Positions 1 through 264 of a DNA stretch of 10,399 bases are shown here, piece by piece (position 1 is the first letter of the stretch; each line of letters starts with the position of its first letter). A model generated the notes under the pieces. The model was not told the DNA's origin. It saw nothing but the letters and a program-made list of their open reading frames with translations, and searched no databases. Made by a program: the position numbers and the translations under genes. Origin of the DNA: a virus (taxonomy: Monodnaviria > Loebvirae > Hofneiviricota > Faserviricetes > Tubulavirales > Inoviridae); the IMG/VR virus record IMGVR_UViG_2609459774_000002. One strand, written 5' to 3'.

Positions 1-264
1 TTAACCACCCAATGATTTATCATATAAACGCAAACCATATTCATCATAACTGAATAAATAATCATAAATATAATCGACTGATAAAGAGCGCAAATCACCA
101 TGACGAAACAATAAAAAACATGATTTACCTGAATTATCCTGTTTAATTATAAAAAATTCAAAAGGAGTGATTTTTATCTTTATAAAATCACGATTAATAA
201 AAACACTGTAACCCTGATTAGCACATGAAGATAAAAAATCAGAAATAAAAGGAGTGATATGCAT
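1..264 (-). CDS. Hypothetical 87-aa protein in a strongly AT-rich segment, immediately downstream of gpV in element B; stop codon at the window edge
   Basis: Complete ORF in the track (ATG at 264, stop at 1-3); GAGAGG-like RBS about 5 nt upstream; sits where Ff phages have gpVII/gpIX but is neither small nor hydrophobic; no family recognised. Confidence 0.35.
   Translation of the reverse strand: MHITPFISDFLSSCANQGYSVFINRDFIKIKITPFEFFIIKQDNSGKSCFLLFRHGDLRSLSVDYIYDYLFSYDEYGLRLYDKSLGG

Follow-up and report, generated by a model that had tools for sequence, protein, structure and literature searches.

ORF87, an orphan gene of a candidate filamentous-phage satellite at the dif site of Escherichia coli

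Introduction

What is an AT-rich gene of 87 codons doing directly behind the gene for the single-stranded DNA (ssDNA)-binding protein gpV of a filamentous phage, where the small coat proteins are expected? The question is raised by the left edge of IMG/VR virus record IMGVR_UViG_2609459774_000002, an inovirus sequence of 10,399 nucleotides (nt), to which we refer in its whole length as the window. The open reading frame (ORF) concerned, ORF87, occupies positions 1 to 264 on the minus strand. An earlier reading made from the letters of the window, here called the sequence-only reading, suggested that it might be horizontally acquired cargo, such as a toxin, regulator or antirepressor, and remarked that it sits where the RS1 satellite carries the antirepressor gene rstC. 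Filamentous-phage satellites are well characterised mainly in Vibrio cholerae, where RS1 and TLC drive the mobility and expression of cholera toxin; in the literature that we searched, no inovirus satellite is described for E. coli. We find that ORF87 is a genuine gene without known family, that the small element carrying it is very probably a satellite comparable to RS1 and TLC, and we propose tentatively that its product takes part in helper/satellite control.

ORF87 belongs to a tandemly repeated element without morphogenesis genes

Extension of the window leftwards was among the checks proposed in the sequence-only reading, given that a normal gpVII/gpIX/gpVIII series to the left of ORF87 would speak against it. 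Positions 1 to 2300 match three of 5426 complete E. coli genomes, JNE112863 (99.8%), 700481 (95.5%) and cM8a (90.5%), and no such series is present left of ORF87 in any of them. In all three, ORF87 is followed by an ORF of 201 amino acids (aa), ORF201, by about 1 kb of mostly non-coding DNA with the phage attachment site attP, and by the next copy of the same unit. A divergent 62-aa ORF, gpII/X, gpV, ORF87 and ORF201 make up the unit, which stands in four tandem copies in JNE112863 (period 3674 bp), in two in 700481 and in four in cM8a. A metagenome contig of 3576 bp with a terminal repeat of 299 nt implies a circular or tandem unit of 3277 bp with the same genes. Annotation, scans for ORFs and transmembrane (TM) segments and profile scans find none of the genes VII, IX, VIII, III, VI, I and IV in the unit, that is, no coat, assembly or secretin genes.

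What the unit does possess is a replicon. The rolling-circle initiator gpII/X (592-1641, minus strand; PF05144 and PF05155) is 56% identical to the gene II protein of phage I2-2, and is followed by gpV (306-581, minus strand; PF02303, E 2e-17; phrog_1199). A hairpin with a 13-bp stem at 2012-2041 (minus strand), in a region with 87% identity over 38 nt to positions 2667-2703 of the I2-2 intergenic region, is the candidate origin on which the I2-2-like gpII would act. The divergent 62-aa ORF (1759-1947, plus strand; phrog_5219, E 7e-23) takes the position of a repressor; it is conserved in all variants of the element.

The unit likewise possesses an integration site. Its attP (2476-2571, minus strand) consists of two inverted dif-like sites, and the viral strand is predicted to fold as a forked hairpin of the CTX type (-40.2 kcal/mol, z -9.3) with the central bulge unpaired. 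It is 97.7% identical to a unit-unit junction of the array at locus L001. Arrays are located between hipA and the ydeQ-T fimbrial genes; the array edge is a dif site with one mismatch in L010 and, in L003 (cM8a), a dif hybrid with an intact XerD arm. These junctions place the integration of the small element at chromosomal dif. Within the window a second attP-like inverted dif pair follows at 2622-2717, 73% identical to the first, while the unit-unit junctions of L001 contain the first pair only. The paired sites probably mark the boundary, at about 2604, between the small element and the large prophage that fills the rest of the window.

A satellite of filamentous phages such as RS1 or TLC is defined by a replicon and an integration site of its own, by the lack of morphogenesis genes and by pieces copied from a resident full phage (PMC3545932, PMC6744903). 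The element of about 3.3-3.7 kb shows each of these traits: two segments, one with attP and a 57-aa ORF and one of 200 nt that follows gpIV in the large prophage, are common to both at about 87% identity, and these are the only ones. Because of this anatomy and context we consider the element, with high confidence, a candidate filamentous-phage satellite of the RS1/TLC kind. As it contains no morphogenesis genes, its coat, assembly and secretin proteins would have to come from a helper, by which it would be packaged and transmitted. Arrays occur with a full inovirus prophage alongside or without one, none adjoining in cM8a and L010. Human isolates from Japan, Pakistan and Malawi carry this lineage. 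Its genes form a mosaic, since synonymous divergence (dS) differs several-fold between adjacent genes of the same genome pair; between the window and L003, for instance, dS is 1.75 for gpV, for which cM8a is an outlier, versus 0.19 for gpII.

ORF87 is a genuine gene of unusual composition

ORF87 is complete, with its ATG at 264-262 and a TAA at 3-1. As the sequence-only reading had recognised, it follows gpV and has a ribosome-binding site of its own: the stop codon of gpV and the start of ORF87 are 41 nt apart, and a Shine-Dalgarno sequence, GAGAGG (275-270), precedes the ATG by 5 nt and is conserved among the ORF87-bearing variants compared. Among four natural alleles the ratio of nonsynonymous to synonymous divergence (dN/dS) is 0.09-0.32, with dS up to 0.39. 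ORF87 is therefore under purifying selection and is a genuine protein-coding gene. In shuffled sequences the frame stays open across the full segment in only 20 of 5000 cases.

The drop in GC content that had drawn attention to positions 1 to about 300 is real, although it does not end where the window does. ORF87 has 26.5% GC versus 46.4% for the whole window, and 0.16 at third codon positions. In the sliding-window analysis the segment lies 2.9 standard deviations under the mean of all windows of 264 nt and is the third lowest of 10,136, the minimum starting at base 11, so that the lowest-GC stretch of the window coincides with ORF87. The ORF201 gene, beyond the window edge, is likewise AT-rich (34-38% GC). 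Given that other alleles of ORF87 have 28-30% GC and that a relative with 46% protein identity has 33%, beside a gpV gene of 46% GC, the dip belongs to the gene itself.

The spacer between gpV and ORF87 (265-305, minus strand) contains, upstream of the ribosome-binding site, a GC-rich hairpin at 279-297 followed by TTT. All five variants with ORF87 retain the stem, GCCCCG/CGGGGC, among them the divergent locus L004, where a T-run comes after it. The fold z-score is only -1.6 and no compensatory changes are seen; we infer a candidate attenuator or terminator. A scan of positions 1-3100 against Rfam gave only sub-threshold chance matches.

ORF87 matches no known protein family

The protein does not resemble the small coat proteins, in agreement with the sequence-only reading. 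Its grand average of hydropathy is -0.01 and its highest 19-residue hydropathy 0.84, and hydropathy and ORF scans reveal neither a TM segment nor a signal peptide. Lacking a hydrophobic membrane-spanning segment, it is unlike gpVII, gpIX and gpVIII; it is predicted to be soluble. An AlphaFold2 model comprises a helix (residues 5-16), four strands and a second helix (64-71). The C-terminal segment, YDYLFSYDEYG, is conserved, acidic and aromatic. An internal repeat (ITPF...ITPF), which had been considered, was dropped as it is not conserved in the divergent homologue P0005.

ORF87 finds no match in Pfam (down to E 10), PHROGs, PADLOC or NCBIfam, and tblastn against 50,697 phage records and 72,556 plasmids gave none. 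A word-indexed search of 5.8 billion proteins returned four clusters at 85% identity or more, all named from E. coli, and an exhaustive profile search of 1.8 billion cluster representatives one further relative, 89 aa long and 46% identical; RstC is not among the matches of either search. The 46% relative, in L004, retains both length and synteny: it sits in the same triad, in which gpV is 70%, ORF87 46% and the helix-turn-helix (HTH) protein that corresponds to ORF201 41% identical. ORF87 was not found in 185,579 GTDB species-representative genomes nor in IMG/VR, and a metagenome scan yielded three loci, all of them the same element or deletion derivatives of it. Profile scans of the UTI89 prophage, of I2-2, of CTX/RS1 and of the large prophages of the window, L001 and L002 revealed no relative.

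Specific candidates fared no better. Aligned with RstC (L009:2727-2948), ORF87 obtains an hhalign probability of 0.08% (E 0.65). The Xer activating factor XafT is defined by DUF3653 (PMC6744903), and this domain is absent from the Pfam matches of ORF87 and of ORF201 at E <= 10. Homology to the 61-aa and 85-aa ORFs of a sister variant of the element, variant B, was rejected on comparison. By these comparisons ORF87 is homologous to no known family, be it RstC, XafT, a coat protein, a toxin or a defence protein.

The most divergent allele of the E. coli type, P0004 (85% identity), occurs in apparent remnants, at L005:1-8573 and also in L006-L008. In these the HTH gene has suffered a truncation or a frameshift, and the flanks are insertion-sequence transposases and plasmid genes (CcdB, Rep3, ParA-like).

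ORF87 lies in an exchangeable cassette and does not co-occur with coat genes in the lineages available

Variant B, known from L010-L015 with the related L016, carries, in this order, gpII, gpV, the HTH gene, a hydrophobic ORF of 61-63 aa, an ORF of 85-95 aa and a hydrophobic ORF of 27-29 aa. The product of the ORF of 85-95 aa resembles gpVIII and bears all the marks of a major coat protein: behind a signal peptide and an acidic N-terminus it has a TM segment, and its C-terminus is basic. Variant B has neither ORF87 nor gpIII, gpVI, gpI or gpIV. At L010:6338-10060 two tandem copies of it, with a period of 3726 bp, are flanked by hipBA and by the fimbrial genes. It would be unusual for a satellite to provide a major coat protein of its own.

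Variant A, which bears ORF87, and variant B are 93.8% identical from the regulator through the gpV stop codon. Beyond it ORF87 has no counterpart in B; the two variants resemble each other again, though weakly, within the HTH gene (67% over 168 nt), and after that in the non-coding DNA and attP. The comparison places ORF87 in an exchangeable cassette that starts exactly at the gpV stop codon. To this extent the idea of horizontally acquired cargo is borne out, although none of the families then named, toxin, regulator or antirepressor, is matched.

Was ORF87 a recent AT-rich insertion? The spacer between gpV and the HTH gene in L016 argues otherwise. It keeps the last 13 codons of ORF87 (EYGFRLYDKSLEG, then the stop) fused to the start of the HTH gene (L016:1985-2054), and the deletion begins inside the conserved hairpin behind gpV. 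This relic indicates that ORF87 was present in the ancestor of that lineage and was later lost, so that what the sister lineage records is loss by deletion there rather than recent insertion here. ORF87 is dispensable for the persistence of the element. Two independent metagenome contigs (L020:101-619 and L021:6259-6777) share a different rearrangement, one in-frame deletion that removes gpV and fuses the C-terminal (gpX) part of gpII to residues 26-87 of ORF87 in an ORF of 172 aa.

The elements that bear ORF87 (L001, L002, L003 and L019) have no coat-like genes, whereas in those without it (L010-L016) the gpVIII-like gene is present, along with the small hydrophobic ORFs. In this small set of lineages, ORF87 and coat genes of the element's own are mutually exclusive. 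The sister variants, with their own coat genes or with ORF87, look like a natural series from filamentous phage to satellite.

ORF87 lies next to a gene for a triple helix-turn-helix protein

Directly past ORF87 lies ORF201, which encodes three GcrA/Myb-like HTH repeats. From the stop of ORF87 to the start of ORF201 there are 2 nt in L001 and 6 nt in L002 and L003, and in L004 the genes overlap. Given a distance of only 2 nt, the two are probably translationally coupled. Of the satellite-specific genes, ORF201 alone is found in every variant; profile scans found no relative in I2-2 or in the UTI89 prophage, and its match in PADLOC is limited to 21 residues of an HTH in mad1. The protein exists in two allele types of about 53% identity (L001:11393-11998 versus L002:9381-9986), in elements whose flanking ORF87, gpV and gpII are 89-99% identical. 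For this reason, and because of indels, ungapped dN/dS values for ORF201 that involve L002 were ignored. The dimorphism is heteroimmunity-like, reminiscent of specificity determinants. Over the 3' end of the gene runs a very hydrophobic alternative frame of 59-64 aa with a TTG start (L001:11344-11523, minus strand; L019:844-1038, plus strand), conserved in three variants and probably a by-product of the AT-rich overlapping gene.

What may ORF87 do?

As the only satellite-specific proteins, ORF87 and the triple HTH protein are the obvious candidates for the exploitation of a helper. We tentatively propose that ORF87 is a small regulatory protein that binds a partner in helper/satellite control, a reading we hold to be possible and somewhat short of probable. 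The cassette would be transcribed by read-through of the hairpin behind gpV, which would attenuate transcription and keep the expression of the cassette below the level of gpV. ORF87 and ORF201 would be co-translated. ORF87, a small soluble alpha+beta protein-binding module without catalytic signature, would then tune the expression of satellite and helper genes by modulating ORF201. Alternatively it may neutralise a repressor, the role that RstC plays for RS1, and in this sense an antirepressor function is conceivable by analogy.

Several observations weigh against this proposal. Neither homology nor a confident structural match links ORF87 to any regulator or antirepressor, and its model is only moderately confident (predicted local distance difference test score 69), the most conserved part, the Tyr/Asp-rich C-terminus, being poorly modelled. 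The helpers next to ORF87 arrays differ in their replication and regulation modules (compare the window with L001 and L002), and cM8a has none beside its array, which argues against an antirepressor specific for one repressor. ORF87 and ORF201 recombine independently; between L001 and L002 the ORF87 proteins are 89% and the HTH proteins 53% identical, which argues against tight allele-specific pairing. The HTH gene occurs without ORF87 in variant B and in L016, so that ORF87 is required neither for the HTH protein nor for the persistence of the element.

A more far-reaching form of the regulatory proposal would make of ORF87 and the triple HTH protein a new helper-takeover module, by which a coat-less satellite of I2-2 type parasitises unrelated CTX-like and other inoviruses resident at dif. 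ORF87 would then be a new fold-family of antirepressors or co-regulators, which replaced the satellite's own coat genes as a half-autonomous mini-phage (variant B) turned into a full satellite (variant A). We regard this version as doubtful.

Could the cassette serve the host rather than the satellite? ORF87 and the HTH protein might be host-directed cargo, either a toxin-antitoxin addiction pair or a module of anti-phage defence or superinfection exclusion, that stabilises the array or benefits the host instead of regulating the helper. A small ORF followed by an HTH gene, with near-overlapping stop and start codons, resembles operons of the higBA/hicAB type, and the cassette is AT-rich and exchangeable, typical of accessory cargo. 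Arrays persist without an adjoining helper, and satellites are described as hotspots of defence genes (Rousset 2022, as cited in PMC12715192). ORF87 shows neither a domain or fold of a toxin family nor the obligatory pairing with an antitoxin that marks a type II toxin-antitoxin system, and matches no defence-system model of PADLOC. We consider host-directed cargo unlikely.

The mutual exclusion of ORF87 and coat-like genes across elements, and the position of ORF87 directly past gpV, would also fit a morphogenesis adaptor that compensates for the missing coat genes, by handing gpV-coated ssDNA to the assembly machinery of a heterologous helper or by biasing packaging towards the satellite; the C-terminal YDYLFSYDEYG could mimic a binding tail. 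However, the lineages sampled are few and all related, a protein without TM segment or signal peptide would not itself be at the membrane assembly site, and ORF87 resembles no known assembly protein. An adaptor thus appears quite improbable. Less probable yet is an accessory factor of integration which, like XafT, would activate or direct XerCD recombination at dif: neither ORF87 nor ORF201 matches DUF3653, variant B, although it lacks ORF87, uses the same integration site, and the folded single-stranded attP, of the CTX type, is processed by the XerC pathway, which is the default FtsK-independent route and needs no activator (PMC6744903). That ORF87 is a spurious or decaying frame in AT-rich spacer DNA, as its tiny family and its deletion or truncation in some lineages might suggest, is scarcely credible in view of its dN/dS and dS, its conserved ribosome-binding site, a 46%-identical homologue of like length and synteny, and a frame that stays open in AT-rich, hence stop-rich, DNA. 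The probability that remains beyond these readings belongs to something not yet imagined. ORF87 is an orphan gene, and its value is that of a lead and not of a result, yet one that is tractable in E. coli.

Comparison with known satellites and phages

The closest parallel is RS1, the satellite of CTXphi of V. cholerae. Both elements are of about 3 kb and are ordered as a divergent small regulator, a rolling-circle Rep protein, an ssDNA-binding protein and a small ORF; both lack morphogenesis genes and are repeated in tandem at dif, where a full prophage adjoins them. In an RS1-RS1-CTX-CTX record of the same layout, rstC occupies the position of ORF87, and the full prophage of the window has RstR-like (68%) and RstA-like (33%) proteins. 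The likeness to the rstC position drawn in the sequence-only reading therefore holds for gene order and array, and fails for the protein itself. RstC acts by aggregating RstR (PMC3545932), and ORF87 is not homologous to it. RS1 shares rstR, rstA and rstB with CTXphi, whereas the module of the small element is of another lineage than that of its neighbour, with gpII and gpV of the I2-2 type versus a Rep_trans/RstA-type module. The small element shares no regulator with the neighbouring candidate helper, its 62-aa ORF being unrelated to the RstR-like protein of the large prophage, and it has in addition the triple HTH gene.

The TLCphi satellite of Vibrio, likewise cryptic and located at dif, also encodes a Rep of its own and a small accessory protein that manipulates a process of host or helper (PMC6744903). 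The small element differs from it in lacking DUF3653 and in its attP, a folded hairpin of the CTX type and not a duplex site of the TLC type. It would work like RS1 and TLC, yet is a member of neither family, and it carries new accessory genes. Its replication module is of the I2-2/IKe/Ff type, as in the UPphi, I2-2 and IKe phages (Lineavirus) of Enterobacterales, and the UPphi phages share with it tandem integration at dif and unexplained accessory genes (PMC7307601). Full phages with a related gpII are common in E. coli, 165 of the 5426 genomes having relatives at about 69% DNA identity. Unlike the small element, the UPphi, I2-2 and UTI89 layouts are those of full phages, with genes VII, IX, VIII, III, VI, I and IV past gpV. 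Of recent concepts the nearest is pDolos of Shewanella, a small replicon of the rolling-circle kind which lacks morphogenesis genes and which a resident inovirus packages (preprint 10.1101/2023.11.28.569023). pDolos is an autonomous plasmid, whereas the small element sits in tandem arrays at dif and has a phage-type gpII and gpV.

In the P4 satellite, the small antirepressor protein epsilon and the transactivator delta, with its tandem domains, are used in the takeover of the helper. The combination of a small protein with a DNA-binding activator made of repeated domains may recall the ORF87 cassette by analogy; P4 belongs to an unrelated system of tailed phages, and no link in sequence or structure was found.

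The neighbouring prophage and the segments it shares

The candidate helper in the window is a complete inovirus prophage (3003-9898, minus strand). It comprises the secretin gpIV (3003-4223), the Zot-like gpI (4233-5490), gpVI (5498-5857), gpIII (5860-7185), a major coat gene within 7241-7618, an ORF of 113 aa (7810-8151) and the RstA-like Rep (8155-9381), all on the minus strand, and on the plus strand the RstR-like repressor (9683-9898). The percentages given above refer to RstA for the Rep and to an RstR variant of Vibrio CTXphi for the repressor, and the similarity of the latter is visible at the DNA level too, at about 70%, which suggests that a CTX regulation module was exchanged between genera. 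The structural module of this prophage occurs in 22 of the 5426 complete E. coli genomes, including that of the enterotoxigenic strain E24377A. The satellite lineage is a compact one at the dif site of E. coli, next to a prophage type also found in such enterotoxigenic strains.

The first shared segment, 2175-2497 of the window versus 10049-10399, has 86.6% DNA identity. It contains the 57-aa ORF (2299-2472, with a second copy at 10200-10374; plus strand), which adjoins attP on the opposite strand; its product is acidic at the N-terminus, has one TM segment and ends in a tail that is strongly basic. Its only match is a weak one to Fst-type toxins (E 0.038), and it could be a small membrane toxin or exclusion protein. 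The second segment (2779-2979, minus strand) follows gpIV, and an 87% copy of it lies just downstream of the triple HTH gene of the small element. The annotated morphogenetic signal of I2-2 sits in the same position, at the end of gene IV, and from this position we infer that the segment may be a shared packaging signal. A packaging-signal hairpin within it was set aside, as the fold support is weak and inconsistent (z -3.1 for the copy of the small element, -1.1 for that of the window); the positional argument was kept.

The end of gpIV is also found outside the chromosome. A stretch of 648 bp (3003-3650) occurs at 99% identity on plasmids of about 104 kb in three strains that carry the prophage, and shorter pieces, 97-124 bp long, are present on similar plasmids of other strains.

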